Shown here piece by piece: positions 12,912-44,822 of a stretch of DNA of 64,000 bases. This DNA comes from Desulfobaccales bacterium (GTDB lineage: Bacteria > Desulfobacterota > Desulfobaccia > Desulfobaccales > 0-14-0-80-60-11): contig JBBFLF010000002.1 of the NCBI GenBank assembly GCA_037481655.1, positions 1,856 to 65,855 on the forward strand, read 5' to 3'. The first letter of the stretch is position 1. Each line of letters begins with the position of its first letter. The position numbers and the translations under genes are program-made. The notes below the pieces were generated by a model, which had not been told where the DNA came from, did no database searches, and saw only the letters and a list, made by a program, of their open reading frames with translations.

Positions 12912-12914
12912 GGA

Positions 12915-15787: not shown

Positions 15788-15816
15788 CGGGGCCGTCGGG
15801 TCAAGGAGCGGGAGAG

Positions 15817-16200: not shown

Positions 16201-16236
16201 AAAAAGGTTGGCCCCGCGGATCGGCCTGACTGAGGC

Positions 16237-20620: not shown

Positions 20621-20812
20621 GGGCCGTTCACCCTCCTTTCACAGTGACTCGGGGAGGCATGGAACCAGACGCCTATCGTCATTCCATACTCCCCAAAATG
20701 AACAAATGTCAAGGAAATGAAACGGGCAGTTCCTTATTTACCCCCCGCCAAATAAAGCCTAATAAGATCGGCGAATATGGCCGTGGTGGACTTGCCCACC
20801 GACTTCCCAACC

Positions 20813-23546: not shown

Positions 23547-23695
23547 AGCCCCAAGGGGAGGCGAAAAGGCGACGGTCGGGCTTCCCCCTGGCGAGGGGCG
23601 GGGCCGTCGGGGCTCGATTTTCTGGGCCGGGCAAACCGGGGTGTGGGTAGGGTCGGATCACGACCCTATCCGACCCCGCCGGCCGTGGCCGGTGG

Positions 23696-25757: not shown

Positions 25758-26103
25758 GGCAGGGTCCTCCTTTCTGATGGCCCCCCGACTCCGGTGAGGA
25801 ATAGTCTCTCCTCCCCTCCTCCCACCCGGAGGCAGAAGCCGGCACCCCCTCATGGAGAGGTGCAAATCTCATGCCCTCAGCTCTCAGGAAATGCCGCATA
25901 TGAAGAGAAAAAATTGCCGACGTGCCGCGGTAGCACCCCGAAAATGCCAGGGAAATGCTGATTAATATTTAAGGTTTTTCCTTAGATAAAAAGATGTTAA
26001 GCTAAAGTCAAGATAAAAATGCACTCTTTGAGTATTTTGCGGCGCGTCTAGGGCCCGCGGGGGCCCGGCCGGGGGAGGCAGGGGAGAAAAACCTTTCGCA
26101 GTG

Positions 26104-26112
26104 TGGTATGCT
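26104..26112 (+). promoter_or_regulatory. Extended -10 element upstream of the V4R/PAS kinase
   Basis: TGGTATGCT about 90 bp upstream of ATG 26204. Confidence 0.4.
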
Positions 26113-26203
26113 AAACGAAAAAATTCTCGTCGGCCGGCTTCCCAGCCACCCATACCCTCCTCCCTGCCCAGGGTGGCTGGCCAGGGAGTAGGGCATCGGT
26201 CGG

Positions 26204-28537
26204 ATGATGGACAAGCATCACAGCTGCCTCAATACCCGGGCGATCATTGAGTTTTTCCAGGAACATCTGCCGGACCGGGTGTCGGAGGTGATCTCCGGCT
26301 TGGGACCGGAGATCGACCGACTGCCCCAGCCGTTGGATTTCCTGATGGAAATCAACAACTGGGTCCACAGTCGGGTGGTCATCCAGATGTTTGCCAATGC
26401 CCGGCGGATCACCGGCGACCCGGATATTGCTTACAAGATCGGCTTTGAGTCCGCCTCCCGGAAAAAGCTGGGCTACGTACAGCGCATTATCCTTTTGGCT
26501 TATAAGAATCCCCGGCGTTCCCTGAGGCGGATCCAGAAAATCAATGACAAATTCAACCGCAACAAGACCATCGAAATTGTGCGGACGACCCGGGACAGCG
26601 CCACTATCCGCCTGCATTGGTTTCCTGAGATCCCGGGAGTGATGGATTTCTGCCGTTTTAATCAGGGAATCTATGCCGGCATCCCCACTATCTGGAATCT
26701 GCCCCCAGCTATCGTGGAAGAGACGGAATGTTATTTTAAAGGGGCACCGTATTGCGAATATAATATTCAATGGGTCAAGAAATTTTCTCTCAAGGAGACC
26801 CTGCTCAATTTTCTGGTGCCCTGGCGGGTGCTGCGATACACCATCGAAGAGCTGGAAAAAGACAAGGAGCTGCTCCGGAGCAAGTTTGAGGAAGTCCATC
26901 GTCTCAATCTGCAACTCCGGGAAAAAATCGACGAACTCCTGGCATTGCAGGAAGAGCTCAAAAAGAGCGAGGCCAAGTTCCGCAACCTCCTGGACTATGT
27001 CCCGGGGATGGCCATCCAGGGCTATGATGCCCAAGGCACCATCCTCTACTGGAACAAGGCCAGCGAGGAGATCTATGGCTACTCCGCCGAGGAGGCGGTG
27101 GGCCGGAAGGTGGAGGAGCTCATCGTCCCGCCTGAACTTCAGGAGTGGTTCCGCCAAGGCCTGAAGCGGGGGGCTAGGGCCGTGAAGAGCGGGGAATTCA
27201 TGCCCGCCGGCGAGCAGTATTTCTGCCGCAAGGATGGCGACCGGATGCCGGTGCACTCCATCCACACCGTGGTCTGCCTGGAGCAGAGTGAGCCCCTGCT
27301 CTTCCGCATCGATGTGGACTTGAGGGAGCGCAAGCGGGTGGAAGAGGAGCTGCGCCAATACCGGGACCACCTGGAGAAGCTGGTGAAGGAGCGCACTGCC
27401 GAGCTCATGGAGGTCAACCTCAGCCTGCAGCAGGAGATCCAGGAGCACCAGCGCACCGAGCAGGCGCTTCGGGCCAGCGAGGAGCGCTTCCGCACCATCT
27501 ACGAGGATGCCCCCATCGGTATCGGGCTGGCGGACCTGACGGGCCATCTTCTCACCGGCAACCCGGCCCTGGCGCAAGCCCTGGGCTACAGCCTCACAGA
27601 ATTGCGGGGGCTTCACCTGCCCGCCCTCAGTCATCCGGATGAAGCCGCCATCGAGGAGACCCTGTTTCGGGAACTGGCCCGGGGCAAGCGCCCCTTCTAT
27701 GAACGGGAGGGGCGTTGCCGGCGCCGGGACGGCACCTACCTGTGGTTTTGGAGCCATGTCTCCCCCATCCGGGACATTCACGGCCAGACCCAATTTGTCC
27801 TCATCATGCTCAAGGATATCACCCGGGAAAAGCAGATCCAGGACGAAATCCGGGACTATCAGGAGCAGTTGCGCTCCCTGGCCTCGGAGCTCTCCCTCAC
27901 CGAGGAGCGGGAACGCCGACGCCTGGCCGTGGACCTCCACGACAATATCGGCCAGATCCTGGCCCTGGCCCAGATCAAGCTGGGGGAGGTGCAGCGAAAG
28001 GCCCGCTCCCGGGAGCTGGAGCGGGTGGTCCAGGAAGTGCGCTCCCTTTTGGGCCAGGCCATTCAGTACTCCCGCTCCCTCACCAGTGAGTTGGGCCTGC
28101 CGGTGCTCTACGACCTGGGGCTGGAGGCGGCGGTGGAGTGGCTGGCGGACCAATTCCAGGAGCAACACGGCCTTTCGGTCACCGTCCGGCGGGATGATTT
28201 TCCCAAACCCCTGGGGGAGGCGGCCAGCGTGCTGGTTTTCCGGGTGCTCCGGGAGTTGCTCACCAATGTGGTGAAGCACGCCCGGGCCACCCAGGTGGAC
28301 ATCGCCATCAGCCGGGAAGGGGAACACCTGGCGGTGCAGGTGAGCGATAACGGGCAGGGCTTCAATCCTCAGGACGGCCTGCCCCGGGTCGGCCGCACCT
28401 CGGGATACGGCCTGTTCAGCATCCGGGAACGCCTGGGGCACCTGGGGGGGTATCTGGACATCAAATCCGCGCCGGGCGAAGGCACCACCGTCACCCTGGT
28501 GGTGCCCCTGGAGCCCCGGGAGATGGCGGCCCATTGA
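26204..28537 (+). CDS. Soluble sensor histidine kinase: V4R-like N-terminus, two PAS domains, HisKA_3, HATPase
   Basis: V4R-like CRFNQG...EETECYFKGAPYCEY; PAS-like YWNKASEEIYGY and GNPALAQALGY; ERRRLAVDLHDNIGQ; DNGQGF. Confidence 0.88.
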   Translation: MMDKHHSCLNTRAIIEFFQEHLPDRVSEVISGLGPEIDRLPQPLDFLMEINNWVHSRVVIQMFANARRITGDPDIAYKIGFESASRKKLGYVQRIILLAYKNPRRSLRRIQKINDKFNRNKTIEIVRTTRDSATIRLHWFPEIPGVMDFCRFNQGIYAGIPTIWNLPPAIVEETECYFKGAPYCEYNIQWVKKFSLKETLLNFLVPWRVLRYTIEELEKDKELLRSKFEEVHRLNLQLREKIDELLALQEELKKSEAKFRNLLDYVPGMAIQGYDAQGTILYWNKASEEIYGYSAEEAVGRKVEELIVPPELQEWFRQGLKRGARAVKSGEFMPAGEQYFCRKDGDRMPVHSIHTVVCLEQSEPLLFRIDVDLRERKRVEEELRQYRDHLEKLVKERTAELMEVNLSLQQEIQEHQRTEQALRASEERFRTIYEDAPIGIGLADLTGHLLTGNPALAQALGYSLTELRGLHLPALSHPDEAAIEETLFRELARGKRPFYEREGRCRRRDGTYLWFWSHVSPIRDIHGQTQFVLIMLKDITREKQIQDEIRDYQEQLRSLASELSLTEERERRRLAVDLHDNIGQILALAQIKLGEVQRKARSRELERVVQEVRSLLGQAIQYSRSLTSELGLPVLYDLGLEAAVEWLADQFQEQHGLSVTVRRDDFPKPLGEAASVLVFRVLRELLTNVVKHARATQVDIAISREGEHLAVQVSDNGQGFNPQDGLPRVGRTSGYGLFSIRERLGHLGGYLDIKSAPGEGTTVTLVVPLEPREMAAH

Positions 28538-28788: not shown

Positions 28789-29439
28789 ATGATGGAGGAG
28801 AGAGTGGTGATTCCGGGCCCGGAGGTGACTTTGGAAGGCCGCTTCCAGGCCGGCCGGAGGGTGGGCGGCGTGGTGGTGGCCCACCCCCACCCCCTGTATG
28901 GGGGCACGATGGACAACAATGTGGTCTGGACCGTCCGCCAGGCCTTCGGGGCCCGGGGGGCTTCCACTCTCCGTTTCAATTTCCGGGGGGTGGGGGAGAG
29001 CACCGGCACCTACGGTCAGGGGGAGGGGGAGATCGACGATCTGCGGGCGGCTTTGGACTACCTCCATCAGCATGCCACCGCGCCCTATCTGGTGGTGGGC
29101 TACTCCTTCGGCGCGGCGGTGGCGGCCCAGGCCTTCCTTCGGGGCCTCAAGGGCGCCGCCGCCCTCCTCATCTCGCCCCCCATCGCCCTCATGAAGCTGG
29201 ATTTCCTCTCCCAGGTCCCGGGTCTGGAAGGCATTGTGGTGGGGGAATGGGATGACTTCTGCCCCTTGGCCGCCCTCTACGGCCTGATGGCGGGGCGCGC
29301 CGTGCCGGTGCCCATCGCGGTGGTGCCCCAGGCGGACCACTTTTTTGGCGGCCGGGAAGAGGCCTTGTTTCACCTGCTCCGGGACTTTCCCCTGCCCGGC
29401 TGGCCGGAAGCCGGCGCCCGCCCGGGGGCGGTGCATTAA
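28789..29439 (+). CDS. Alpha/beta-fold hydrolase (COG2945-like)
   Basis: HPHPLYGGTMDN, RFNFRGVGES, GYSFG nucleophile elbow, GEWDDF, ADHFF. Confidence 0.9.
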   Translation: MMEERVVIPGPEVTLEGRFQAGRRVGGVVVAHPHPLYGGTMDNNVVWTVRQAFGARGASTLRFNFRGVGESTGTYGQGEGEIDDLRAALDYLHQHATAPYLVVGYSFGAAVAAQAFLRGLKGAAALLISPPIALMKLDFLSQVPGLEGIVVGEWDDFCPLAALYGLMAGRAVPVPIAVVPQADHFFGGREEALFHLLRDFPLPGWPEAGARPGAVH

Positions 29440-29498: not shown

Positions 29499-30653
29499 AT
29501 GACGCCCCCGTCTGTCGGCTCTGCCCCTTTCACCCCGCCCCGGGTGCTCATCGCGGCCTGGGAGCCGGCCTGTCTGCTCCCCATCTTCGGGGAGGCCGCC
29601 CTCACCCGGCTGGTGCGTCTGGCGGCTTCGGAGGGCTGTGCGGTCACGGTCCTCCTCACCCCGGAGTTGCGCGGGGCTTTAAGCCGCCGGCCCCGGGACG
29701 CCGGCATCGTGGTCTGGCGCCTGACCCCCCGGGAGGAGTTGCCGGAGGCCGCGGCCCAGGTGGGCGGGCATCCCCAGGAGCCCGTCCTGCTCCTGCCGGG
29801 CCACAGCGTCTGGGACCGCCGCAGTTTCCGCCGGGCGCTGGCCGGCGTGCCCGGTTCCTTAAGCGCCTTTCGCCTGGCGGCCGCCCAGGTGCCGGTGGCG
29901 TTGGAGGAATGGCGGGAGAAAGGCGTGCCCACTATAGAGGGCGGCCTCCCGGTGCTGCTGTCCCGGCCCGAGGACGCCCCGGCGGCGGAGGCGCGCCTGG
30001 TGGCGGCCCTGGCCGCCGCCACCCAGGAGAGCGACGGTTTTCTGGCCCGCTGGGTGGACCGGCCCCTGTCCCGGCGCCTCAGCCCCCGACTGGCGGCCTG
30101 GGGCGTGCCTCCCAACGCCGTCACCCTGGCGGGGGTGAGTATCGGCCTGGCGGGGGCTTTTTTGCTCGCCCTGGCGGTGTATCCGGCGCAGGTGGCGGGA
30201 GCGTTGCTCTTCTGGGCCGCGGTGGTGCTGGATGGGGTGGACGGCGAGGTGGCCCGCCTGAGCCTCAAGGAGAGCCGCTTCGGGCACTATCTGGACATCA
30301 TCACCGATAATCTGGTGCATGTGGGGGTGTTTGTGGGCCTTGCCGTGGGCTTGTATCGCCAGGCCCCCGACGCCCGCCACCTTTATGCCCTGGGCCTGCT
30401 GCTCATCGGCTTCGGCCTCTGTGCCCTGGCGGTGTATATGGTCCTGGGGCGGCAGGATCAGGCCGCAGAAGGCACCCCGGCAGAGCGCCTCATCACCGCC
30501 CTCAACAGCCGGGATTTCGCCTACTTAATCCTGCTTCTGGCTGTGGCGAACCGCCTGCACTGGTTTTTGTGGGGGGCGGCGGTGGGCACGTATGTCTTTG
30601 CCGGCCTGTTATTTACCCTCGGCCGCCGAGCCGACCGGGCCGGCCGCGCCTGA
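29499..30653 (+). CDS. CDP-alcohol phosphatidyltransferase with a degenerate N-terminal nucleotidyltransferase-like domain
   Basis: Signature DGVDGEVARLSLKESRFGHYLDIITD (DxxDGxxAR...GxxxDxxxD); PNAVT; N-terminal soluble region. Confidence 0.88.
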   Translation: MTPPSVGSAPFTPPRVLIAAWEPACLLPIFGEAALTRLVRLAASEGCAVTVLLTPELRGALSRRPRDAGIVVWRLTPREELPEAAAQVGGHPQEPVLLLPGHSVWDRRSFRRALAGVPGSLSAFRLAAAQVPVALEEWREKGVPTIEGGLPVLLSRPEDAPAAEARLVAALAAATQESDGFLARWVDRPLSRRLSPRLAAWGVPPNAVTLAGVSIGLAGAFLLALAVYPAQVAGALLFWAAVVLDGVDGEVARLSLKESRFGHYLDIITDNLVHVGVFVGLAVGLYRQAPDARHLYALGLLLIGFGLCALAVYMVLGRQDQAAEGTPAERLITALNSRDFAYLILLLAVANRLHWFLWGAAVGTYVFAGLLFTLGRRADRAGRA

Positions 30654-30793
30654 CGTGAACCGTTAGGGGCCCTTGGGCCTACGGGAAATAAAACCTCAGG
30701 AGTGGGGTAATGGAGGGTGGGGGTCTCCGATCCCTGTCCTTCTTCCAAAAGTAAGTGGAAACTGTATCATCATCATGGTAATGGGGGAATTCC

Positions 30794-31522
30794 TTGTCCA
30801 AAATTGACCCTTCTGTCTCTACGGTGGATTTAAGCCGGGTGAGAGGCGTGCTTTTCGACCTGGGGGGCACCCTGGACGGCGACGGCGAACATTGGCTGAA
30901 CCGCTTCTGGCTGCTGTATCAGAAGCACTTCCCGGAGCTGGGTTTTGAGGCGGTGAAGGCCGCCTTCTATCAGGCGGAAGAAGCCTGCCTCACCGACCCC
31001 CGGGTGGCTTCCTTCACTTTGCCCCGCCTGGTGGCCTACCACGTGGAGCGACAATTGGCCGCCCTGGGCTATCAGCCGGAGGCCGGGGAGAAGCTGGCCT
31101 GGGAATTCTTGGAAGGCTGCCGCCGGGTGATCCGGCGCAACGCCTATGTGCTCCGGGACCTGGCCCAGGACTACCGCCTGGGGGTGGTGACTAACGGCTA
31201 CGGTAACGCCTCCCTGCTCCTGGCCGGGGAGGCCATCGCCATCTGGTTTGCCGTCATTGTGGATTCTGCCCGGGTGGGGGTGCGCAAGCCCGACCCGGAG
31301 ATCTTCCGTCTGGCGGCCCGGGAGCTGGGCTTCCCGCCGGCGGAGGTGGTCTATGTGGGGGACTCCTACACCCAGGATATCCGGCCGGCCAAGGGGGAAG
31401 GCTTCATCACCGTGTGGCTCCGGAATGATCCCATGAACGCACCCCTGCCGCCGGATGCCGACCCCTCCCTGGCGGATTTTGTCATCCGCAGCCTGCCGGA
31501 ACTGGCGGGGCTCCTGCCGTGA
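30794..31522 (+). CDS. HAD-superfamily hydrolase (subfamily IA)
   Basis: FDLGGTLD motif I, VVTNG, RKPDPEIF, YVGDSYTQDI; TTG start. Confidence 0.88.
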   Translation: MSKIDPSVSTVDLSRVRGVLFDLGGTLDGDGEHWLNRFWLLYQKHFPELGFEAVKAAFYQAEEACLTDPRVASFTLPRLVAYHVERQLAALGYQPEAGEKLAWEFLEGCRRVIRRNAYVLRDLAQDYRLGVVTNGYGNASLLLAGEAIAIWFAVIVDSARVGVRKPDPEIFRLAARELGFPPAEVVYVGDSYTQDIRPAKGEGFITVWLRNDPMNAPLPPDADPSLADFVIRSLPELAGLLP

Positions 31523-32214
31523 AGGCGGGCATCATCGCCGCCGGGCTGGGAAGCCGCCTGGCCCAGGGGGGGATCACCGTGCCCAAGCCATTGGTGGAGG
31601 TGGCCGGCGACACCCTCATCGGCCGGGTCATCCGGGAGGCGGCGGCAGCCGGCGCTTCTGCCGTGGCCGTCATCACCACCCCCATCTACCCCCAGGTGGC
31701 GGCCTATCTCCGGGAGCGCCCGTGGCCGGTGCCGGTGGCGGTGCTGGAATGGGAAAGCCCCCATTCCCTGGCCAGCCTCCTGGCCTTGCGGCCCTATCTG
31801 GATGAGCCTTTTCTCCTCTCCACCGTGGATGCGGTACTGGCTTCGGGCGCTATGGCCGCCTTTGCCGCCCAGGCCCAGGGCCGTCCCGGCCTCGGCGCCC
31901 TGGGACTTACGCAGGACATTGATGACGAAAAGCCCCTGTATGTCAGCCTGGGGGAGAACGGGCGCATCCTGAGCCTCGGTCAGCGACCCAGCCCCTGGAT
32001 CACCGCCGGCTGTTATTACTTTGCGCCCCGGGTCTTTGACTATGAAACGGCGGCCCGGGAGCGGGGCTTGGGGGCCCTGCGCCAGTTTCTGGCCTTTCTG
32101 GTGGAGGCGGGGGAGATTTTGTGGGGGGTGGATGTGGGCCCGGCGGTGGATGTGGACCATCCCGAGGATATCGTCCGGGCGGAGGCTTTCCTGGCCGGGG
32201 GCCCAAAGGGCTGA
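31519..32214 (+). CDS. Nucleotidyltransferase (NTP_transferase; candidate CTP:inositol-phosphate cytidylyltransferase)
   Basis: IIAAGLGSRL...PKPLV, STVD, DVDHPED; GTGA overlap with the HAD stop. Confidence 0.87.
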   Translation: MKAGIIAAGLGSRLAQGGITVPKPLVEVAGDTLIGRVIREAAAAGASAVAVITTPIYPQVAAYLRERPWPVPVAVLEWESPHSLASLLALRPYLDEPFLLSTVDAVLASGAMAAFAAQAQGRPGLGALGLTQDIDDEKPLYVSLGENGRILSLGQRPSPWITAGCYYFAPRVFDYETAARERGLGALRQFLAFLVEAGEILWGVDVGPAVDVDHPEDIVRAEAFLAGGPKG

Positions 32215-32478
32215 GTGAGTGCCCCAAAATCACCCTTTCCTGGTGACAAGGGGCATCCTTCCTGATAAAAATCTCCATTTGTGGCCGGCAAGAGTATCAA
32301 GACAGGGGGCCCATTCCGGAGGAGCCGGCCTCCGGGGAACGGAAATCCCCTTCAATATAGGGATATTTTCCATTTTTCTCCATTGACCATGTGTTGGGAG
32401 AGAAGGTGGGATGAGGGGAAAGGAGGCCACCGCTCTTTGGCCCCTCTTTGGATTACATAAAAGCGGAGATGCCTCATC

Positions 32479-33309
32479 GTGGCCGGCCTCGCTCCTCCCC
32501 TGATCTACGGCATTTACCGGGAAAAAGCCCTGTCCCCGGGCAAGGTGGAGGCAGATGCCGCCATCTTGGAGGCCGTCCTAAGGGGCCTGGAAGCCCTGGG
32601 TTGCCAGGTGGCCACCCTGAGGGCCGACGCCTTGCCGGATGCTCCGCCGCCGGCCACCGGCTTCCTGCACCTGGCCCAGGGACCGGCCGCCCTGGCGCGG
32701 CTTTCTGCCTGGGAAGCCCAAGGGGCGCGGCTCATCAATCCGCCGCAGGCCGTCCGGCGCTGCTGGCGGCGCTCTCTGCCGGAGATCATGGCCCAGGCGG
32801 GGGTGCCCTACCCCCAGACCCGGTTATACACAACTGGCGAGGCCGAGGCACTCTTTGCCCAGGACTTCCCCGGCCCGGGCTGGCTGAAGCGGGCCGAGAT
32901 CCACGCCGAGGGGCCCGGCGACGTGGTGCAGGTGCATTCCCGGGAAGAGGCCTTGGCCGTGCTTGGGGATTTCCGCCGCCGGGGCATTGACGCCCTGGTG
33001 TGGCAGGAGCACCTCCCCGGCCGGGAGGTGAAGTTTTACGGCGTGGGGCCGGGCCGGTTCTTCTGGGCTGCCGCCCCAGGCGACCCCAAGCCCCTGTCCC
33101 CGGAGGCGGCGGCCCCGCTGGCTGACTTAGCGGCCCGGGCGGCCCAGGCGGTGGGGCTTAGCGTCTTCGGCGGCGACCTCATTCTGCGCCCTGACGGCCG
33201 CCCGGTGCTCATCGACCTCAACGACTGGCCCAGCTTTTCCCGCTGCCGGGAGGCTGCGGCCCGGGAGATAGTGCGATATGTCTGCGACGCCTTTCACCTC
33301 GACGCGTGA
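32479..33309 (+). CDS. ATP-grasp-fold protein of unknown function
   Basis: RLINPPQAV, GWLKRAE, WQEHLPGREVKFYGV, FGGDLI...LIDLNDWPSF (RimK/GshB-like ATP-grasp pattern). Confidence 0.75.
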   Translation: MAGLAPPLIYGIYREKALSPGKVEADAAILEAVLRGLEALGCQVATLRADALPDAPPPATGFLHLAQGPAALARLSAWEAQGARLINPPQAVRRCWRRSLPEIMAQAGVPYPQTRLYTTGEAEALFAQDFPGPGWLKRAEIHAEGPGDVVQVHSREEALAVLGDFRRRGIDALVWQEHLPGREVKFYGVGPGRFFWAAAPGDPKPLSPEAAAPLADLAARAAQAVGLSVFGGDLILRPDGRPVLIDLNDWPSFSRCREAAAREIVRYVCDAFHLDA

Positions 33310-34621
33310 CGAGCGGCCCCGCTCCCGGGAGCTCTTCCGGGCGGAGCTGCCCTTTTTGTCCCCCGGCTTCCAGAATGTGGCCCTGCTGGCCGAACTGGTG
33401 CTGGACCGGGGCGAGGGCCGCTACCTCTATGACCTGGACGGCAACCGCTACCTGGATTTCATGGCGGGTATCGGGGTCTGCTCCTTGGGCTACAGCCACC
33501 CCGCCTGGGTGGCGGCCATGACCGAGCAGATCCGGAAACTCACGGTGGGCAGTTTCGCCACCGTCAACCGGGGAAAATTCCTCAGGCGCCTGGCGGAGGT
33601 GGCCCCGGGGGACCTGAGCCAGACCATGCTCTACTCCGGCGGCGCCGAGGCGGTGGAGGCCGCCATCCGCCTGGCCAAGTCCTTCACCAAGAAATTCGAG
33701 GTGCTGGCCTTCTGGGGCGGCTTCCACGGCAAGACCGGCGGGGTGCTGGGCCTCATGGGGAGCACCTTCAAACACGGCTGGGGGCCCCTCCATCCGGGCC
33801 TATATCTGACGCCTTACGCCTACTGCGAGCGCTGCGCCTTCAAGCTCACCTACCCTTCCTGCGGCCTGCACTGCCTGGAGTTTGCCCGGGAGGTCATCCG
33901 CCTTAACACCACCGGCTCGCTGGCCGCCATCCTGGTGGAGCCCATCCAGGGCACCGCTGGCAACGTGGTGCCGCCGCCGGAGTTTCTCCCCGGGGTGCAG
34001 GAGATCTGCCGGGAGCACGACGCTCTTCTCATCGCCGACGAGATGCTCACCGGCTTCGGGCGCACCGGCCGGCTCTTCGGCTGCGAGCACGACGGGGTGG
34101 TGCCCGATGTCATCACCATCGGCAAGGGCATGGGGAGCGGCTTTCCGGTGAGCGGGCTCATCTCCACCCCCGGCATCATGCGGGCGGAGCCCTACTCCAA
34201 GCCCTCCGCCGCCTCCTCCAGCTACGGCGGCAACCCCCTGGCCGGCACCGCCGCCTGGATCACCCTGGAGACCCTGCTCAATGAAAACATTGTGGAGAAC
34301 GCCGCCCGGGTGGGGGATTATCTCCTGAAACGCCTGCTGGAGCTCCGGGAAAAATACCCCTTCATCGGCCGGGTGCAGGGCAAGGGCCTGATGATCGGGG
34401 TGGAATTCGTGCGCCACCGGGACCGGGACAAGACCCTGCTCCCCGGCAAGGTGATGGAGCAGGTCTTCAAGGAATCCCTCCGGCGCGGCCTCATCAGCAT
34501 GAATTACACCGCCCAGTACCGCATCAACCCGCCCCTCACCCTCACCGAGGCCGAGGCCGAGGAGGGCGTGGGGATACTGGACGAAGTCTGCGCCTGGCTC
34601 GCCCAGCAGAGCCAGCTTTAA
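33278..34621 (+). CDS. Class-III PLP-dependent aminotransferase
   Basis: GEGRYLYDLDGNRYLDF, SGGAEAVE, FHGKT, EPIQG, ADEMLTGFGRTG, IGKGMG (PLP lysine), GGNPL. Confidence 0.93.
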   Translation: MSATPFTSTRDERPRSRELFRAELPFLSPGFQNVALLAELVLDRGEGRYLYDLDGNRYLDFMAGIGVCSLGYSHPAWVAAMTEQIRKLTVGSFATVNRGKFLRRLAEVAPGDLSQTMLYSGGAEAVEAAIRLAKSFTKKFEVLAFWGGFHGKTGGVLGLMGSTFKHGWGPLHPGLYLTPYAYCERCAFKLTYPSCGLHCLEFAREVIRLNTTGSLAAILVEPIQGTAGNVVPPPEFLPGVQEICREHDALLIADEMLTGFGRTGRLFGCEHDGVVPDVITIGKGMGSGFPVSGLISTPGIMRAEPYSKPSAASSSYGGNPLAGTAAWITLETLLNENIVENAARVGDYLLKRLLELREKYPFIGRVQGKGLMIGVEFVRHRDRDKTLLPGKVMEQVFKESLRRGLISMNYTAQYRINPPLTLTEAEAEEGVGILDEVCAWLAQQSQL

Positions 34622-34628
34622 GGATTGC

Positions 34629-34815
34629 TGAGGGGAAGGCCGGGGGAGCGGCGGCTCCCCCGCCCAGGTAAGCCTTAAGGACTTGGGAGAGGGGGCTAGG
34701 GGTTGCGAACCCCTGCCCCCTCTCCCCAACCCTCTCCCCCAACCCCTTATGGGGGGTGGGGAGAGGAGTTTGAGGGGAGGGCGGGGGCCTATGGCCTCCC
34801 GGCCCTCCCCTCAAC
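34629..34815 (+). repeat. Palindromic intergenic repeat, copy 3 (34685-34815), preceded by an inverted half copy (34629-34665)
   Basis: GAGAGGGGGCTAGGGG...CCCCTGCCCCCTCTC...CCCCCAACC...TATGGGGGGTGGGGAG...TGAGGGGAGGGCGG...CCGGCCCTCCCCTCA matches copy 2. Confidence 0.8.
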
Positions 34816-34832
34816 AACTCGGATAAAGTAAC

Positions 34833-35870
34833 ATGGACTCCTCTAAAAAAAGTCCCTTCATTGGCGGGCTAATCGGCTTCGGCAAGGTGGCGGAGAAGGC
34901 CCACCTGCCAGCGCTGCAGGGCCTGCCGGGGTTCCGCCTGGGGGCGGTGGCCGAGCCCCTGCCGGCGCGTCGGGAGCTGGCCCGGGAGCTCCTGCCGGGG
35001 GTGCGGGTCTATGAGAGCCAGGCCGCCCTGCTGGCGGGCGAATCCTCCCTGGATTTTGTGGCCGTCTGTTCCCCACCCGCCAGTCACGTGGAGCTGGTCC
35101 GGGAGGCCCTTACGGCCGGCTGCCATGTGTTGTGCGAAAAGCCCCTGACGCTGGATCTCGCGGCCCTGGCCGGGCTGGAAAAGTTGTCCCAAGCCCACAA
35201 GCGGGCCCTGGTGACGGTGCACAATTGGAAGTATGCCCCCCTTTACCGGGCGGCCCAGGGGGCGCTTACGGACGGCCTCATCGGGGAGGTGCAGGAAATC
35301 ACCTGGGAGGTGCACCGCACCTCCACGAGCGGCGGCGGCCTCACGGACTGGCGCCACTCCGGTGCCGCGGCCGCCGGCGGGATTTTGGTGGACCACGGCT
35401 GGCATGCCTTTTATCTCCTCCTGGGTTTGGCGGGGGAGTTACCGGCAGTCCTGCGGGCGCATCTGACCCCGGCCCCGGCAAACCCCCAGGGGGTGGAGCA
35501 TGAGGCCGAGGTGGAGCTGCGCTTTCCCCGGGCCCGGGCGCGCCTTTTCCTCACCTGGCGGGCGAAAGTGCGGCTGAACCGCGGCCGCCTCCTGGGCACC
35601 GCCGGGGAGCTCCTCCTGGAGGATGACCGCCTGCTCCGGCGCCGTGATGGCCAAGTGGAGCTCGTGGCCGCCTTTCCCGAGAAACTGAGCGGCGGCTCCC
35701 ATCACCCGGAATGGACCCGGGGCTCCTGGGAGGAGTTCGCCGCGGAAATCCGGGACCCGGCCCTCCGGGGCCACAACCTCGCCGAGGCGGGCCACTGCGC
35801 CCGCCTCATCAGCCTGGCCTACCGCTCCCACGCCGCCGGCGGCGCCTGGCTTCCTTACCCTCCCGGATGA
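34833..35870 (+). CDS. Gfo/Idh/MocA-family oxidoreductase (inositol-dehydrogenase-like)
   Basis: LIGFGKVA Rossmann motif, CSPPASH, HVLCEKPL, GGILVDHGWH. Confidence 0.9.
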   Translation: MDSSKKSPFIGGLIGFGKVAEKAHLPALQGLPGFRLGAVAEPLPARRELARELLPGVRVYESQAALLAGESSLDFVAVCSPPASHVELVREALTAGCHVLCEKPLTLDLAALAGLEKLSQAHKRALVTVHNWKYAPLYRAAQGALTDGLIGEVQEITWEVHRTSTSGGGLTDWRHSGAAAAGGILVDHGWHAFYLLLGLAGELPAVLRAHLTPAPANPQGVEHEAEVELRFPRARARLFLTWRAKVRLNRGRLLGTAGELLLEDDRLLRRRDGQVELVAAFPEKLSGGSHHPEWTRGSWEEFAAEIRDPALRGHNLAEAGHCARLISLAYRSHAAGGAWLPYPPG

Positions 35871-36862
35871 AACGGCGCCCCGACCCGCACCTTCTGGCCG
35901 GGGCTTTGGGAGCCCTGGTGCTGGCCCTGCTGCTGTATCGCCTGGGCTGGGCCGAGGTGCTGGCGGAGCTGAAGCGGGTGGGCTGGGGCTGGGTCCTCAT
36001 CCTGGGCCAGGAAATCCTCCCCATCCTGGCCAACACCGGGGGCTGGCACTACACCTTCCTGAAAGAGGAGCGCCGGGTGCCCTTCGGGCGGTTGCTCCGC
36101 CTGCGCCTGGCCGGGGACGGCTTCAACTACCTCATCCCCAGCGCCACCGTGGGCGGGGAGCTGTTGCGCATCCACCTGCTGCGCCGGGAGATGGCCCTGG
36201 CGGCCTCGGCGGCCTCGGTCACGGTGGCCAAATTCACCCAGATGCTGGGACAGGCCCTGTTCATCGGCCTGGGGCTGCTGCTGGCGGCCCCCTTTGCCCC
36301 GTTGCGGCCGGGCCTGCTGCCGGTCCTCTGGGCCCTGCTTGTGGGCTGCCTCCTCTTGTTAGGGGTGGTGCTTTTGGGACTGAGATGGGGAGTCTTCTCC
36401 CGGCTCACCGGCCTGGTGGTGAGGTGGCTCCCCAGCCGCTTTAAGGGCTTACTGCCGGTGGACCAGGCCGCGGCTCTGGACCGGGACATTGCCGCTTTTC
36501 TGGGGAAGGATCAGCCCGCCTTCTGGCTCTCCGTGCTTCTCTTTGGCCTGGCCTGGGCGTTGGGCACGGTGGAAGTGCTCCTCATCTGCCATTTCCTGGG
36601 GGTGCCGGTGAGCCTGGCCACTGCGGTGACCATCGAGACCCTAAGCGTCTTCATTGACGGGGTGCTCTTTTTCGTGCCCGGGAAACTGGGAACTCAGGAG
36701 GGGGGCAAGGTGCTGATCTTCCTGAGCTTGGGGCTTCCCCCCGTTTCAGGGCTGGCCTTTGGCCTCATCCGGCGTCTCCGGGAGCTTACCTGGGCCGGCC
36801 TGGGGGTGGCCTGCCTCCTGACCTTCCGGGCAGAGGGGGCCCCATCAGGTTCGGGAAATTAA
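35867..36862 (+). CDS. UPF0104 / lysylphosphatidylglycerol-synthase TM-region membrane protein (HpnL-like)
   Basis: Multi-TM; NYLIPSATVGGE, FFVPGKLGTQEGG, LIRRLREL; ATGA overlap with the oxidoreductase stop. Confidence 0.82.
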   Translation: MKRRPDPHLLAGALGALVLALLLYRLGWAEVLAELKRVGWGWVLILGQEILPILANTGGWHYTFLKEERRVPFGRLLRLRLAGDGFNYLIPSATVGGELLRIHLLRREMALAASAASVTVAKFTQMLGQALFIGLGLLLAAPFAPLRPGLLPVLWALLVGCLLLLGVVLLGLRWGVFSRLTGLVVRWLPSRFKGLLPVDQAAALDRDIAAFLGKDQPAFWLSVLLFGLAWALGTVEVLLICHFLGVPVSLATAVTIETLSVFIDGVLFFVPGKLGTQEGGKVLIFLSLGLPPVSGLAFGLIRRLRELTWAGLGVACLLTFRAEGAPSGSGN

Positions 36863-36897
36863 TGTCCTCCCGCCTGGCCTTTCCCCCGCCCGCCAAC

Positions 36898-36929
36898 AAA
36901 AAAAACCAGGGTCATCCCCTGGTCTTTTT
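36898..36929. terminator. Bidirectional intrinsic terminator
   Basis: A8-CCAGGG-loop-CCCTGG-TCTTTTT between two convergent genes. Confidence 0.75.
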
Positions 36930-36966
36930 CCTCAGCCTCGATGGGGAAGCGATTCCCCGCGGCCCT

Positions 36967-38070
36967 CTACCGCTCCCGGATTCCTTGGATGAACTCCTCC
37001 ACCCGGCGGGCGGCCTCGTCATCGGGCATGGGCTCGGGCGGATGTTTCATGGTGTAGGCGGAAATACTGGTGAGGGGGCCGGCAATGCCCCGGTCCCGGG
37101 CCAGCTTGGCGCAGCGCACCGCGTCGATCATGCAGCCGCCGCTGTTGGGGGAGTCCTCCACCGACAGGCGCATCTCCAGGTGCATGGGGAAACCCCCAAA
37201 CCCCCGGGCCTCGATCCGCAAAAAAGCCACCTTGTTGTCCTGCTGCCAGGGCACATAATCCGAAGGGCCCACGTGCAGGTTGTTGGGCTCGAAGTCGGGG
37301 GGCAGAAGCGAGCTCACCGCTTCGGTCTTGGAGCGTTTTTTGGTGGCCAGCCGGTCCCGGTTCAGCATGTTGAGAAAGTCGGTGTTGCCCCCCACGTTGA
37401 GCTGGTAGGAGCGGTCCACCGTCAGGCCCCGCTTCTGGAAGAGGTGCACCAAAGTGCGGTGCAGGATGGTGGCCCCCAGTTGGCTTTTCACGTCATCCCC
37501 CACCACCGGGATGCCCGCGGCGGTGAAGCGGGCGGCCCAGTCGGGGTCGGAGACAATGAAGGTGGGCATGCAGTTGATGAAGCTGACCCCGGCCTCCAGG
37601 CAGCACTGGGCGTAGTAGCGGGCCGCCTCCTCGGAACCCACGGGCATGTAGTTGAGGAGCACCTCGGCGCCGGTGTCCCGAAGCACCTTAGCCACATCCA
37701 CCGGCGGGGCGTCGGCCACCACAAAGGTCTGCTCCGGCGGATATGTGGCCATATGGGGGGAGACGCCGTCCAGGACCGGGGCCATCTGCACCAGGACCGG
37801 AATCTCCGGCAGATCCGGAATGATGCGGTAGCAGCAGTTGGGCGGGGCAAAGATGGCCTCGGACACCGGCCGCCCCACCTTGCGGGCGTCGATGTCGAAG
37901 GCGGCCACGATTTCCAGATCCCCCGGCCGGTAGCCGCCGATCTCCGGATGCATCAGCCCCAAGGGCCAAGCGGCCTCCGGGTTGTGCCTGCGGCGATAGT
38001 ACTCAATCCCCTGCACCAGGGCACTGGCGCAGTTCCCCACTCCCGCGAGCGCGATCCTGATCTTTCCCAC
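36967..38070 (-). CDS. ino1: myo-Inositol-1-phosphate synthase
   Basis: AGVGNCASALVQG, NYMPVGS, GDDVKSQLGATI, QLNVGGNTDFLNM, SKTEAV, DSPNSGG. Confidence 0.96.
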   Translation of the reverse strand: MGKIRIALAGVGNCASALVQGIEYYRRRHNPEAAWPLGLMHPEIGGYRPGDLEIVAAFDIDARKVGRPVSEAIFAPPNCCYRIIPDLPEIPVLVQMAPVLDGVSPHMATYPPEQTFVVADAPPVDVAKVLRDTGAEVLLNYMPVGSEEAARYYAQCCLEAGVSFINCMPTFIVSDPDWAARFTAAGIPVVGDDVKSQLGATILHRTLVHLFQKRGLTVDRSYQLNVGGNTDFLNMLNRDRLATKKRSKTEAVSSLLPPDFEPNNLHVGPSDYVPWQQDNKVAFLRIEARGFGGFPMHLEMRLSVEDSPNSGGCMIDAVRCAKLARDRGIAGPLTSISAYTMKHPPEPMPDDEAARRVEEFIQGIRER

Positions 38071-38265: not shown

Positions 38266-38970
38266 TCAGGCCAAGATCTCCAGATCAATGATGCCCGACG
38301 GGGCGGGGCCGGAATGGTTGGCCGGGAATTCCTGCTCTGAAGCGGCAGTGGTGATGACCGGGGCAGGAGGCTCCGCCAGGTCCATGGCGCGGCCCAGGGC
38401 CTCCAGGAGCTCGGTGCAGGCGGCCACCATTTCCTTGATGCGCAGCAACGCCTTCAGGTTGAGGGAGGTGAGGTGGGCCTCCGTTTCCACCCGGTCGCGG
38501 CGGTGGGGCCGGCCCAGAACGCGGTCCACCCGCCGCAATGCCGCGCTCCCCGAATCCGGGAAGAGGAGATAGTCCGCCACCTCCAGGCGGAAGGCCACGG
38601 GCGGCAGGGGGGTTTCCTGGTAGCCCAGGAGGATGACCGGGGGCGGTGGCAGGCAGTTCTGGGCGGCCTGGATCACGGCCAGCCTCTCCTGCCATCCTGC
38701 GTCCAGCTCCACCAGGAGGAGGTCCAGGGCCTGGCGGGCCAGATGCGGTAAGGCCTCCTCCGCCCGGGCGGTGACCAGCACCCGGTAGTCCCGGAACTCC
38801 AGGGCCGTCAGCAGGCCGTCCAGGGGGGCGGAGGGAGTGGCCAGCACCAGGATGGTGGGCGGGGCCAGCTTTTTTGCCTGGGGCACGGTCTTCTGGCGGC
38901 GGCCTGTGGCCGAGTGAAAGGAGCTTTGCCTGAAGGAGAGGTCGGGGCGGGTCTGTCTGTTCATGGTCAT
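38266..38970 (-). CDS. Pseudo-receiver-domain protein
   Basis: Receiver-like fold, but the acidic pocket (ILVLATP), phospho-Asp (LLVEL) and KP (FP) positions are substituted. Confidence 0.55.
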   Translation of the reverse strand: MTMNRQTRPDLSFRQSSFHSATGRRQKTVPQAKKLAPPTILVLATPSAPLDGLLTALEFRDYRVLVTARAEEALPHLARQALDLLLVELDAGWQERLAVIQAAQNCLPPPPVILLGYQETPLPPVAFRLEVADYLLFPDSGSAALRRVDRVLGRPHRRDRVETEAHLTSLNLKALLRIKEMVAACTELLEALGRAMDLAEPPAPVITTAASEQEFPANHSGPAPSGIIDLEILA

Positions 38971-39092
38971 CCTCCCTGGGAAGGGCGCTTGGCCTTCCTG
39001 GATCTTCGCCTGAACCTGTGGGCCATTGACACCGCAACTCACCGCTTACCCTGGCCCAGGGTGAGTCAGCCTGACGGAGGAGTCCGAGGGAT

Positions 39093-39563
39093 TCAGGTTC
39101 CTGGCCGGCCAGGGGCGGCCGGGGCCAGATGGGAGGAGAGATATTGCTCTCCCGCCATGATCCGGCGAATCGCCTCGATGAGTTCGGTATCCGTATCCTC
39201 CTTGAGCAGATAGCCGTCAGCTCCGGCTTCCAGAGCTTCCTTCAGATAGGCCGGATTGCGGTGCATGGTGAGGATGAGGACCTTGATCTCCGGGCAGAGC
39301 TCCTTGACCCGGCGGGTGGCCTCCAGACCCGACATCCGGGGCATGGTGATGTCCATCAGGATCACATGGGGCCGGCAATATTGCAGGATTTCCAGGAGCG
39401 CGGCGCCATCCTCCACCTCACCGATGACCTTGAGGCCGTCGGTGCTCTCCAGGCACTGCTTGACCATGGCCCGGAAGAGGTCGTGATCCTCCGCCAACAC
39501 GATGAGGCAGGGGCAGGGACTTAGCACCTCTGCCAAGGGCGGGGAACAGTCGTTGCGGTGCAT
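39093..39563 (-). CDS. NarL-type receiver domain without HTH
   Basis: LAEDH, LMDITMP, LTMH, GYLLKED; ends before an HTH; SD GGAGAAGGA. Confidence 0.85.
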   Translation of the reverse strand: MHRNDCSPPLAEVLSPCPCLIVLAEDHDLFRAMVKQCLESTDGLKVIGEVEDGAALLEILQYCRPHVILMDITMPRMSGLEATRRVKELCPEIKVLILTMHRNPAYLKEALEAGADGYLLKEDTDTELIEAIRRIMAGEQYLSSHLAPAAPGRPGT

Positions 39564-40001
39564 GATTCCTTCTCCCGGGGCTCCTGCCCCGCTGCGGCTA
39601 TTCCCGCTCGTAGCCAATATGCCTCTGCCCCCTGCAAGTCAAGCCACTGGGAAATAGTAGTGCTTTAGTGCTCCGTGTGAGCTCAAAAAGTCCCAGATTC
39701 TGAACCTAGAGACTCCTGTCCTCCGAAATGGGGAAAGCTCTTGAAGCGCGCCCCTCTTCCCCTGAGAAACTTCCACGGTGGCTCTACTCTACCCCCTTAG
39801 TAACGGGGAGGCTATGACCAAGAATGACCAATCAGGGATGGATAAAAGTATTTATGGAAATTTGCGTGGGCGGGGTGAGGACAGTGATTGGGGAGATAGG
39901 TGAGATGCCAGGAAGTGTCCACCTGAAACAAGGCCGAGTCCGATCGCGAGGCAGGAGAAGGGTGGCTCCTTGCCGCCTCCATCCGCGGCCGGGGAGGTAG
40001 C

Positions 40002-40649
40002 TCAGGTAGTGTAGCCCTTTTCCACCGCGTAGCGCACCAGGTCGGTGATCCGCTTCAGCTTCAGTTTGCGCAGGATGTTGTTGCGGTGGTTGTGCACCGT
40101 GCGCTGGCTGATGAAGAGGAGATCGGCGATCTCCTTGCTGGATTTGCCTTCGGCGATGAGTTTCAGCACCTGCTTTTCCCTGAGGGACAGGACCTCTTCG
40201 GCGCTGCGGCGGCGCCCCTGGAATTCCTCAGCCAGCATTTCCTGGATTTCCGGGGCCATGCGGGGGGAGAAATATTTTTTCCCCTGCCGCAAGGCCTTGA
40301 TCGCCGCCTGCAACTCCTCCACGGCATCTTCTTTGACCAGGAAGCCCTCGGCGCCGGCCTTGAAGGCGTGGTAGAGATACTCCCGCTCCTTGTGCATGGT
40401 GAGGACCAGGACCTTGGCGGCGGGGCAGGAGGATTTGATCTCATAGAGGGCCTCCACGCCCCGGAGGCGGGGCATGGACAGGTCCAGGACGATGAGATGG
40501 GGGGTGAGGCGCTTCAGGAGCTGCAACAGTTCCAGGCCGTCACCGGCCTCCCCCACCACCTCCACGCCCGGAATCTCCTCCAACAGACGCCGTACGCCCT
40601 GGCGGAACATGGCGTGATCGTCGGCCAGCAGGATGCGGAAGGGAATCAC
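40002..40649 (-). CDS. NarL/LuxR-family response regulator
   Basis: LADDH, LDLSMP, LTMH, HTH LSLREKQVLKLIAEGKSSKEIA; GTG start overlaps the kinase stop. Confidence 0.95.
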   Translation of the reverse strand: MIPFRILLADDHAMFRQGVRRLLEEIPGVEVVGEAGDGLELLQLLKRLTPHLIVLDLSMPRLRGVEALYEIKSSCPAAKVLVLTMHKEREYLYHAFKAGAEGFLVKEDAVEELQAAIKALRQGKKYFSPRMAPEIQEMLAEEFQGRRRSAEEVLSLREKQVLKLIAEGKSSKEIADLLFISQRTVHNHRNNILRKLKLKRITDLVRYAVEKGYTT

Positions 40650-44600: not shown

Positions 44601-44822
44601 GACTGGCACCTTCCTGAGCGAATGTCCTGGAGCACGTAAAGATTCCTGAGCCTTCTGCACTACTTTTCGAACTACTGGGCAAATCCCTTTAATTTGTGAC
44701 CGGTGGGCAGGGCCGGGGGAAAATGGCTCCCCTTCCGCTTTCGGGCCAACTTCGACCACGTCGCCCCGGCATTTTTGTGCTATGGTACGACAAACTCCGA
44801 CCTGAGTTCATGGGAGGGCGCC

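Follow-up and report, generated by a model that had tools for sequence, protein, structure and literature searches.

Inositol lipids have long been considered rare in bacteria. For Bacteroides (Phocaeicola) vulgatus and Prevotella, a putative and unconfirmed alternative inositol-lipid cluster has been described, together with a Kennedy-like logic in which CDP-inositol is joined to a lipid alcohol (Heaver et al., 2022; PMC9246714). This alternative route of the gut Bacteroidota was never demonstrated; a related and larger module is now seen to be widespread. Here, we describe one of its representatives, an eight-gene cluster at positions 29499-38070 of a 64,000-nt stretch of contig JBBFLF010000002.1 from a Desulfobaccales bacterium (the whole stretch being referred to as the window). 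The head-group module to which the cluster belongs is widespread and uncharacterised; its ATP-grasp proteins form an undescribed family, and its HAD hydrolase is atypical. All four genes whose clustering marks the arrangement of Heaver et al., namely MIPS, an NTP transferase, a CDP-alcohol phosphatidyltransferase and a HAD hydrolase, lie within 29499-38070, and together with a UPF0104 gene they agree with the published description (PMC9246714), as the original prediction, made from the sequence of the window, had stated. In B. vulgatus, BVU_RS13095 is the NTP transferase, BVU_RS13105 the transferase and BVU_RS13115 the HAD gene. The likeness extends to gene families and described layout, including an LPG-synthase-like (UPF0104) gene nearby in both. 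In contrast, no ATP-grasp protein, aminotransferase or dehydrogenase is named by Heaver et al. (PMC9246714), whereas the cluster of the window has all three in its core, and its carriers are environmental Thermodesulfobacteriota, Verrucomicrobiota and others rather than gut Bacteroidota.

The genes of the window, which has a GC content of about 66%, were defined by a codon-position GC filter combined with a list of open reading frames (ORFs) and with Pfam and NCBIfam scans. Seven co-directional genes on the + strand and one convergent gene on the - strand make up the cluster:

29499-30653, + strand: CDP-alcohol phosphotransferase (CDP-OH_P_transf) of the IPCT/DIPPS and AF2299 type (PF01066, 48.9 bits against a cutoff of 22)
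30839-31522, + strand (TTG at 30794 as an alternative start): atypical HAD-IA hydrolase (Pfam and NCBIfam; motif VLFDLGGTLD)
31519-32214, + strand: nucleotidyltransferase (NTP transferase; Pfam NTP_transf_3 and NTP_transferase)
32479-33309, + strand: ATP-grasp protein of a family without description (fold from an AlphaFold2 (AF2) model and Foldseek)
33278-34621, + strand: class-III/omega aminotransferase dependent on pyridoxal phosphate (PLP) (Aminotran_3, hereafter AT3; Pfam E 1e-99)
34833-35870, + strand: NAD(P) oxidoreductase of the GFO_IDH_MocA family (hereafter GFO; Pfam)
35867-36862, + strand: UPF0104/LPG_synthase_TM integral membrane protein, MprF-flippase-like and HpnL-like (PF03706, 111.3 bits against 33.4)
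36967-38070, - strand: MIPS (ino1, Inos-1-P_synth), convergent on the other seven genes (PF01658, 120 bits against 27)

The same eight genes were obtained by an independent gene call on the identical public contig (Logan SRR33387333). Families, orientations and positions given for them in the original prediction all held, apart from the implied start of the UPF0104 gene, which had been placed 160 nt too far upstream. The description of the genome as non-Bacteroidetes was likewise borne out by the nearest named relatives, which are Syntrophobacterales/Thermodesulfobacteriota metagenome-assembled genomes (MAGs). Since the nearest relatives of several proteins are found in Syntrophobacterales MAGs, the genome is of Thermodesulfobacteriota type and not from the Bacteroidota.

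The ATP-grasp protein was chosen as the probe for relatives because it matched no named family. When GTDB was scanned with a single genome for each species, this family, which has 46 invariant positions in 20 diverse sequences, proved to be encoded in 495 species genomes, and the 80 best loci were compared by tblastn and all-against-all ORF clustering. A core of five genes, HAD > NTP transferase > ATP-grasp > AT3 > GFO, occurs in one fixed order in 62-71 of these 80 loci and in at least five phyla. This order is present in Thermodesulfobacteriota, Verrucomicrobiota (Chthoniobacterales), Elusimicrobiota, Acidobacteriota, Methylomirabilota and Polyangiales, and is kept down to about 35-40% protein identity in dozens of genomes, most carriers being MAGs from peat, soil and digesters. 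The core is also present in Desulfoferrobacter suflitae DRH4 (L014), and a Desulfobacca acetoxidans-like genome (L082) shows all nine genes of the arrangement. The gene arrangement lies far beyond chance and represents a real, tightly conserved cluster. The ATP-grasp protein, the aminotransferase and the dehydrogenase, treated as mere accompaniment by the original prediction, thus form the conserved core together with the HAD hydrolase and the NTP transferase.

Fusion proteins provide the strongest single result for the linkage of these enzymes in a pathway. A profile search over 1.84 billion cluster representatives returned 1534 representatives for the ATP-grasp profile (511 at E <= 1e-30), and fusions were checked by Pfam among the best 150. 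These include seven fusions of NTP transferase and ATP-grasp, one of HAD, NTP transferase and ATP-grasp (P0294, 802 amino acids (aa)) and one of ATP-grasp and CDP-OH transferase (P0375, 700 aa), the fusion representatives being P0251, P0294, P0300, P0318, P0371, P0374, P0375, P0384 and P0386. The NTP transferase–ATP-grasp fusion is also encoded in three of the GTDB loci (L056:9446-10843, L073:9482-10807 and L076:9341-10804). Fusions among HAD, NTP transferase, ATP-grasp and transferase place these four enzymes in one pathway. The HldE/GmhB system follows a similar logic, with a kinase fused to a nucleotidyltransferase and a HAD phosphatase acting between the two. In Prevotella veroralis, a transferase–HAD fusion has been reported (Heaver et al., 2022; PMC9246714). 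A further representative, P0385 (391 aa), is extended by 107 aa at its N-terminus.

Neighbouring genes were counted in the 47 fully flanked loci, defined by at least 8 kb on either side. AT3 and GFO occur together in 44 of them, and 40 have a CDP-OH transferase, belonging to any of three sequence types, no more than 10 kb away. A lipid-type transporter (UPF0104, MMPL, TolC, ABC or Wzx-like) is present in 39 and UPF0104 itself in 22; across all 80 loci, UPF0104 directly follows GFO in 35. MIPS is found in ten fully flanked loci and is adjacent in 20 of the 80 loci overall; by chance, well under one such adjacency would be expected, assuming one MIPS per genome. A second, strongly IPCT-like NTP transferase (E 1e-34 against IPCT/DIPPS) is encoded in 19 fully flanked loci and, over all 80 loci, in 22 beyond the 20 with adjacent MIPS; either MIPS or this IPCT-like gene is present in 29 of the 47. 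What the data show directly are the families of the genes, the colinearity of the core, the fusions and the enrichment of MIPS/IPCT-like and lipid-transport genes.

The original prediction had made the co-inheritance of ino1 with the other genes a test of the inositol reading. Linkage of ino1 holds throughout the clade of the window (L002-L009 and L082), where it is adjacent in all close relatives, and does not extend family-wide, given the counts above. In six Thermodesulfobacteriota loci (L011, L021, L027, L029, L038 and L075), HAD, NTP transferase and ATP-grasp are directly followed by UPF0104 without AT3 and GFO, with MIPS, TolC, MMPL and a transferase nearby. Such loci have the look of a naturally occurring minimal form of the pathway. 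They therefore single out HAD–NTP transferase–ATP-grasp as the most tightly linked unit, to which the dehydrogenase–aminotransferase pair is a separable addition, in keeping with a pair that plugs in at the stage of the free cyclitol.

The CDP-OH transferase combines an N-terminal nucleotidyltransferase-fold domain of ~170 aa with six transmembrane (TM) helices. Its transferase motif is complete (D245-x2-D248-G-x2-A-R...G262-x3-D266-x3-D270) and invariant in 30 homologues. The best NCBIfam models are IPCT/DIPPS (NF041135, 70.9 against 580 bits), AIP synthase (NF040950, 57.8 against 180) and PIP synthase (NF045883, 49.4 against 170), with all scores under the respective cutoffs, and the best PDB sequence matches are the Archaeoglobus fulgidus IPCT-DIPPS 4mnd (E 1e-14) and AF2299. 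The AF2 model (pLDDT 90.5) likewise has its best Foldseek match in 4mnd (436 columns), while the N-domain leads to the IspD and IPCT folds. The alignment shows AAWEPACL in this domain at the place of AAGxGxRL, and the loss of the GxGxR signature marks it as a pseudo-cytidylyltransferase, as in AF2299. The active cytidylyltransferase domain with GxGxR and a catalytic Lys that IPCT/DIPPS requires at the N-terminus is therefore represented here by the fold only. The separate NTP transferase keeps both the AAGLGSRL and the PKPL signatures. It matches the IPCT half of NF041135 over its full length, albeit weakly (E 1.6e-10; 40.6 against 580 bits), and its best PDB match is the A. fulgidus IPCT 2xme (E 8e-7). 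Based on its sequence, it is predicted to be a CTP:cyclitol-phosphate cytidylyltransferase.

The HAD hydrolase carries the invariant N-terminal stretch D-x-G-G-T-L-D-x-D-G-x-H-W (D28, H33 and W34 being invariant), and its motifs II-IV are intact. Motif I reads D-x-G-G-T in 72 of 72 family members. It thereby deviates from the canonical motif D-x-D-x-[TV] of HAD phosphatases and mutases, whose Asp+2, the general acid/base, is replaced by an invariant Gly. For the ATP-grasp protein, none of 20 family members scores above the gathering threshold of any Pfam family. Its AF2 model (pLDDT 93.7) resembles LysX, ArgX and RimK (TM score ~0.73) and maize ITPK1 (0.72) in Foldseek. Pfam RimK is matched by three of 20 members (best E 0.0036) and NCBIfam rimK_fam with 32 against 143 bits, the RimK and LysX cutoffs being missed, as is that of Ins134_P3_kin (PF05770; E 0.16, 11.9 against 23 bits). 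A profile match to ITPK4/ITPK1 is local and covers the Mg-site segment GGD...IDLNDWPSF only. The protein is a predicted cyclitol kinase, with an amide- or ester-forming ligase as the alternative.

The aminotransferase displays a DEMLTGFGRTG motif and the IGK lysine, reaches no NCBIfam equivalog cutoff, and has GABA, ornithine and putrescine aminotransferases as well as racemases as PDB neighbours. GFO contains the EKP motif (K103) and D187-x3-H191, both of which are general to the Gfo/Idh/MocA family. Its N-domain, and this domain only, matches inositol 2-dehydrogenase TIGR04380 (E 1e-16, 60.5 against 355 bits), and its PDB neighbours include L-arabinose 1-dehydrogenase and the inositol 2-dehydrogenase 4hkt, aldose 1-dehydrogenases being equally near. 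UPF0104 is a predicted lipid flippase; it scores below the cutoff of HpnL TIGR03476 (E 5.5e-44, 151 against 196 bits) and shows no aminoacyl-phosphatidylglycerol (PG) synthase domain (NF033480, 20 against 600 bits). MIPS matches TIGR03450 over its full length (positions 4-361; E 4e-132) with 441 bits, the mycothiol-type cutoff being 638.

In relatives, the core lies in a lipid context. MMPL/TolC genes accompany it in 21 of the 80 loci. Thermodesulfobacteriota loci continue from the core into UPF0104, TolC and MMPL, and a B12-radical-SAM gene is located 5' in some of them; the B12-radical-SAM gene of the window (12915-14291) was considered as a counterpart of the core-linked gene of Syntrophobacteraceae and dismissed (24% identity, partial sequence). 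In Chthoniobacterales/'Spartobacteria' MAGs, a region of ~18 kb is conserved around the five-gene core. It spans about 1-18000 of each of the loci L036, L043, L047, L049, L053, L055, L057, L061, L062, L064, L072 and L078, in the following order:

first part: ABC transporter, Wzx-like protein, KDSR-like SDR, IPCT-like NTP transferase, CDP-OH transferase (~400 aa)
second part: GNAT-like protein (369 aa), unknown 177-aa protein, second CDP-OH transferase (~290 aa)
third part: core, unknown 228-aa protein, Spt/BioF-like alpha-oxoamine synthase, KdtA

Two or three CDP-OH transferases are thus encoded per Chthoniobacterales locus. The KDSR-like SDR matches NF049977 with E 1.6e-50 and the alpha-oxoamine synthase of the Spt/BioF/Kbl type its family with E 1e-94 to 1e-103, while the 369-aa GNAT-like protein is possibly a bacterial ceramide synthase. 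These neighbours point to a sphingolipid and outer-membrane setting, which suggests an undescribed inositol-type sphingolipid pathway in the Verrucomicrobiota.

Our preferred reading, which we regard as evenly poised between right and wrong, is that a Kennedy-type (CDP-alcohol) route encoded by the cluster leads to a membrane lipid whose inositol-phosphate head group is modified, probably by amination. In the proposed scheme, we infer every substrate, the order of the steps, the kinase role of the ATP-grasp protein and the lipid acceptor. MIPS would convert glucose-6-phosphate to inositol-3-phosphate, whose phosphate may then be taken off or repositioned by the HAD hydrolase. The Gfo/Idh/MocA dehydrogenase would oxidise a ring hydroxyl to a ketone and the class-III aminotransferase would turn this ketone into an amine, yielding an inosamine-type cyclitol. 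The ATP-grasp protein would re-phosphorylate the cyclitol in the manner of ATP-grasp inositol-phosphate kinases, the NTP transferase would form the CDP-cyclitol, and the DIPPS/AF2299-like transferase would move the cyclitol-phosphate onto a lipid alcohol, presumably a diacyl- or dialkylglycerol in the organism of the window and a ceramide in the Chthoniobacterales. Finally, UPF0104 would flip the lipid, and in relatives the MMPL/TolC pair would export it to the outer membrane. In loci without AT3 and GFO, the triad of HAD, ATP-grasp and NTP transferase would move the phosphate set by MIPS from D-3 to another ring position. Such a move would give a stereochemically defined CDP-inositol and would explain a workable Kennedy-type bacterial pathway to phosphatidylinositol (PI) or inositol phosphorylceramide.

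This scheme is preferred because every core enzyme receives a job and the fusions are accounted for; the Kennedy-type logic of Heaver et al. (PMC9246714) suits the cluster and has to be extended for it. As the ATP-grasp protein, AT3 and GFO belong to the conserved core, plain PI or di-myo-inositol phosphate (DIP) is an unlikely end product; a cyclitol head group that is derivatised, and probably aminated, agrees better with this gene content. The inositol-headgroup product inferred in the original prediction is upheld as to the gene set, the IPCT-type relatives and the lipid-export and sphingolipid context, and needs revision where it implies plain inositol. More tentatively, and as a possibility that we consider doubtful, the cluster would stand for a previously unrecognised lipid class. 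Such a lipid would combine an aminocyclitol (inosamine) phosphate head group, made with a new ATP-grasp cyclitol kinase and a HAD variant without the canonical general acid, with a glycerolipid (Thermodesulfobacteriota) or sphingolipid (Chthoniobacterales) anchor, flipped by UPF0104 and exported by MMPL/TolC.

Several observations weigh against the aminated-cyclitol scheme. The HAD hydrolase lacks Asp+2 in all 72 members, and an ordinary role as alkyl-phosphate phosphatase is thus uncertain. Sequence and fold do not part kinase from ligase for the ATP-grasp protein, as LysX/RimK and ITPK1 score alike. The inosose aminotransferases known to date are of the DegT/StsC type rather than of class III. 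MIPS is missing from the neighbourhood in most loci, and neither MIPS nor an IPCT-like gene is found in 18 of the 47 fully flanked loci. The CDP-inositol-type route of the original prediction is favoured by archaeal IPCT and IPCT/DIPPS being the best solved relatives of the NTP and CDP-OH transferases, and is weakened by the low scores of these matches (E 8e-7 and 40.6 of 580 bits for the core NTP transferase). Moreover, at only 23% identity between the core NTP transferase and the strongly IPCT-like enzyme found beside it in Verrucomicrobial loci, their substrates may differ. CpgD, an IPCT-like enzyme of Caulobacter, uses phosphoglycerate (PMC12275187). Literature searches on the module, on inosamine lipids and on a link between an ATP-grasp inositol kinase and a cytidylyltransferase brought up no relevant paper.

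Among the rival explanations, the one that survives best concerns the ATP-grasp protein, which would act as a ligase and couple the amine of the head group to a carboxylate (an amino acid, for instance), with the same machinery and lipid fate otherwise. In loci without AT3 and GFO, an ester to a ring hydroxyl would be formed instead, and an aminoacyl- or acyl-cyclitol lipid comparable to lysyl-PG would result. The MprF-type UPF0104 protein would flip this lipid, and the HAD hydrolase would act like PIP and DIPP phosphatases, clearing a remaining phosphate from the product of the transferase. This is in keeping with LysX, ArgX and RimK as the top Foldseek matches, with the ester-forming ATP-grasp enzyme PsnB, followed by RimK, as the best PDB profile match, and with weak NCBIfam matches to RimK, MptN and LysX; by fold and by profile, ligases match no less well than ITPK does. 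UPF0104 is also the family of the MprF flippase domain, and both the ATP-grasp–transferase fusion and the HAD–transferase fusion reported in Prevotella veroralis speak for this explanation. However, the recurrent fusion partner of the ATP-grasp protein is the NTP transferase, as is typical of kinase–nucleotidyltransferase pairs, the Mg site reads D-x-N and not E-x-N, as in ITPKs, and the block holds neither a conserved carrier protein nor a gene supplying amino acids. On balance, we consider a ligase unlikely.

Less probable still is a core that activates a phospho-alcohol other than inositol phosphate, with MIPS and the IPCT-like genes serving a separate, co-located inositol step. Candidates would be an amino-polyol phosphate, obtained by transamination of a sugar-phosphate aldehyde, and a sugar-acid or glycerate derivative. 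Besides the scarcity of MIPS near most cores and the precedent of CpgD (PMC12275187), the equal nearness of GFO to aldose 1-dehydrogenases and inositol dehydrogenase speaks for this explanation, as does a separate enzyme of Verrucomicrobial loci, encoded next to the core NTP transferase, that is a far better candidate for an IPCT. Furthermore, aldehydes and omega-amines are the normal substrates of class-III aminotransferases. It is countered by the clade of the window and by the loci without AT3 and GFO, where the core NTP transferase is the sole cytidylyltransferase next to MIPS and a transferase; the best solved relative of this enzyme also remains IPCT.

That the product is a soluble solute of the DIP type, made by a split IPCT and DIPPS with the HAD hydrolase as DIPP phosphatase, appears improbable. 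Both transferases do match IPCT/DIPPS best, a phosphatase and MIPS are present, and the name of the nearest MAG (HOT.CON) hints at a warm habitat. Yet DIP requires no dehydrogenase, aminotransferase or ATP-grasp protein, the IPCT/DIPPS equivalog cutoffs are all missed widely, the carriers are mostly peat, soil and digester MAGs, and UPF0104, MMPL/TolC, ABC/Wzx-like transporters and sphingolipid-type genes are consistent neighbours of the block. Slightly weaker again, and very improbable, is an envelope glycan (lipopolysaccharide core, capsule or teichoic-like polymer) decorated with a phospho-cyclitol in place of a bulk membrane lipid, for which KdtA, the Wzx-like flippase and the ABC transporter flanking the Chthoniobacterales block, a Lip_A_acyltrans gene syntenic in the clade of the window and inositol detected in a Bacteroides capsule (PMC9246714) could be cited, but no glycosyltransferases are conserved in the block, and characterised CDP-OH_P_transf enzymes use lipid or small-molecule alcohols rather than glycans.

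Two further candidates were rejected. A plain PI or DIP cluster with unrelated neighbours is at odds with the colinearity of the ATP-grasp protein, AT3 and GFO with HAD and NTP transferase across phyla and with the fusions to pathway enzymes. Aminopentanetetrol lipids are known in Thermodesulfobacteria and Aquificae. Synthesis of such a head group is unsupported here, as the route would need no MIPS, GFO or ATP-grasp protein, and there is no biosynthetic literature for comparison.

Of five genes upstream of the cluster, the first four (22155-28537) remain syntenic with it in relatives at 55-76% identity (L004, L007 and L082) and may belong to an extended lipid-remodelling locus:

22155-23546, + strand: FadL-type outer-membrane channel, syntenic with the cluster
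23696-24850, - strand: MR/MLE-family enzyme, syntenic with the cluster
24762-25865, - strand: Lip_A_acyltrans (LpxL/PatA-type) acyltransferase, a possible extended member (PF03279, E 1.7e-11)
26204-28537, + strand: PAS/HisKA_3 sensor kinase, a possible regulator (Pfam and synteny)
28792-29439, + strand: small alpha/beta-hydrolase, a clade-specific accessory directly 5' of the transferase (Pfam Hydrolase_4 and Abhydrolase_6)

The acyltransferase, whose real start probably lies downstream of the TTG, is syntenic with FadL, the MR/MLE enzyme and the PAS kinase in L004, L007 and L082 (61-76% identity). For the sensor kinase, synteny extends to L003, L004, L007 and L082 (69-92%), and for the alpha/beta-hydrolase to L002, L003, L004, L007 and L082 (58-91%). 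The upstream synteny, from the alpha/beta-hydrolase to FadL, persists in relatives with no more than 55-62% identity.

Within the cluster, the stop of the HAD gene overlaps the start of the NTP transferase gene by 4 nt. Other junctions in the clade of the window are long intergenic gaps (32215-32478, 264 nt; 34622-34832, 211 nt; and 30654-30838, ~185 nt), and in distant relatives the same junctions are 4-nt overlaps instead. According to a gap alignment, these gaps are clade-specific and little conserved except for one promoter-like stretch, GGTGACAAG...TTCCTGATAnAAATC in the gap between NTP transferase and ATP-grasp being common to the window, L002 and L003. The gap between AT3 and GFO contains C-rich and G-rich runs that resemble a long inverted repeat. 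A riboswitch or other RNA in the large gaps was rejected, as Rfam gave zero hits across the whole window. Two candidate signals come from pattern scans alone, the first as a consensus match only:

32243-32272, + strand: promoter-like site GTGACA-18-AAAAAT in the gap between NTP transferase and ATP-grasp
36905-36923, + strand: terminator-like hairpin followed by a T-run, inside the 104-nt convergent gap between UPF0104 and ino1

Downstream of ino1, a regulatory block occupies 38266-43807 on the - strand:

38266-38964, - strand: 232-aa protein with receiver-like sequence and no Pfam hit
39093-39563, - strand: stand-alone receiver
40002-40649, - strand: LuxR-type response regulator
40646-43807, - strand: GAF/5xPAS/HisKA_3 kinase

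Elsewhere in the window, the + strand encodes a TreT-type trehalose synthase (2356-3603) and, at 44700-52297, a bacterial alpha-2-macroglobulin (A2M; 1743 aa) overlapping a PBP1C-type transglycosylase/transpeptidase, the classic A2M-PbpC pair of diderms. The - strand carries an MFS transporter, a 522-aa protein with a QueC-like segment and the B12-binding radical SAM enzyme in one direction (9514-14291) as well as cytochrome bd oxidase subunits I and II (18267-20638).

The conserved core, now defined, includes three enzymes that had no earlier connection with inositol lipids, and each step of the pathway becomes a concrete, testable enzymatic hypothesis. The carriers belong to abundant, mostly uncultured lineages of soil, peat, sediment and digesters. 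If the head group is indeed aminated, it would represent a new zwitterionic or cationic lipid class and a potential biomarker of these lineages in environmental lipidomics, and both the function of the ATP-grasp protein and the catalytic variant of the HAD hydrolase would be new.

Beyond the Bacteroides cluster, the closest relatives of both transferases are the IPCT/DIPPS enzymes (A. fulgidus 4MND and 2XME; AF2299 4O6M), with which the locus shares MIPS, a phosphatase and the two-domain architecture of a nucleotidyltransferase fold joined to a six-TM CDP-OH transferase. Unlike IPCT/DIPPS, the N-domain in the window lacks GxGxR (as does AF2299), and a gene of its own encodes the active NTP transferase. 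Scores lie far under the equivalog cutoffs, and the window adds amination and ATP-grasp enzymes and a lipid-transport context. The sequence of kinase, HAD phosphatase and NTP transferase is also reminiscent of HldE-GmhB, HddA-GmhB-HddC and the Kennedy pathway, with regard to the working principle only, and the kinase–nucleotidyltransferase fusions of the HldE-GmhB type have analogous fusions here. In contrast to HldE/HddA, the putative kinase has an ATP-grasp and not a ribokinase or GHMP fold, the HAD hydrolase lacks Asp+2, and the activated group would pass to a CDP-alcohol transferase rather than to a glycosyltransferase.

For the dehydrogenase–aminotransferase pair, a precedent exists in NtdC/NtdA/NtdB, in which a Gfo-type dehydrogenase, an aminotransferase and a HAD enzyme act on a sugar phosphate. 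Both this kanosamine module and IolG with StsC (scyllo-inosamine) combine a Gfo/Idh/MocA dehydrogenase (EKP, DxxxH) with a PLP aminotransferase in order to convert CHOH to CHNH2. The aminotransferase of the window is, however, of class III and not of the DegT/StsC type, and no aminoglycoside or rhizopine genes are located nearby. In Caulobacter, the IPCT-like cytidylyltransferase CpgD provides a CDP-activated head-group unit for the (sphingo)lipid CPG2, which parallels the sphingolipid context of the Chthoniobacterales loci (PMC12275187). There, the substrate is phosphoglycerate, whereas no counterparts of CpgA, CpgB and CpgC were identified in the loci described here, which use a CDP-OH transferase instead. 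Lastly, UPF0104 is a clear family match (PF03706) to the MprF flippase domain and HpnL; it has no aminoacyl-PG synthase domain and falls short of the HpnL model, while its position at the end of the operon fits a flippase for a modified lipid.

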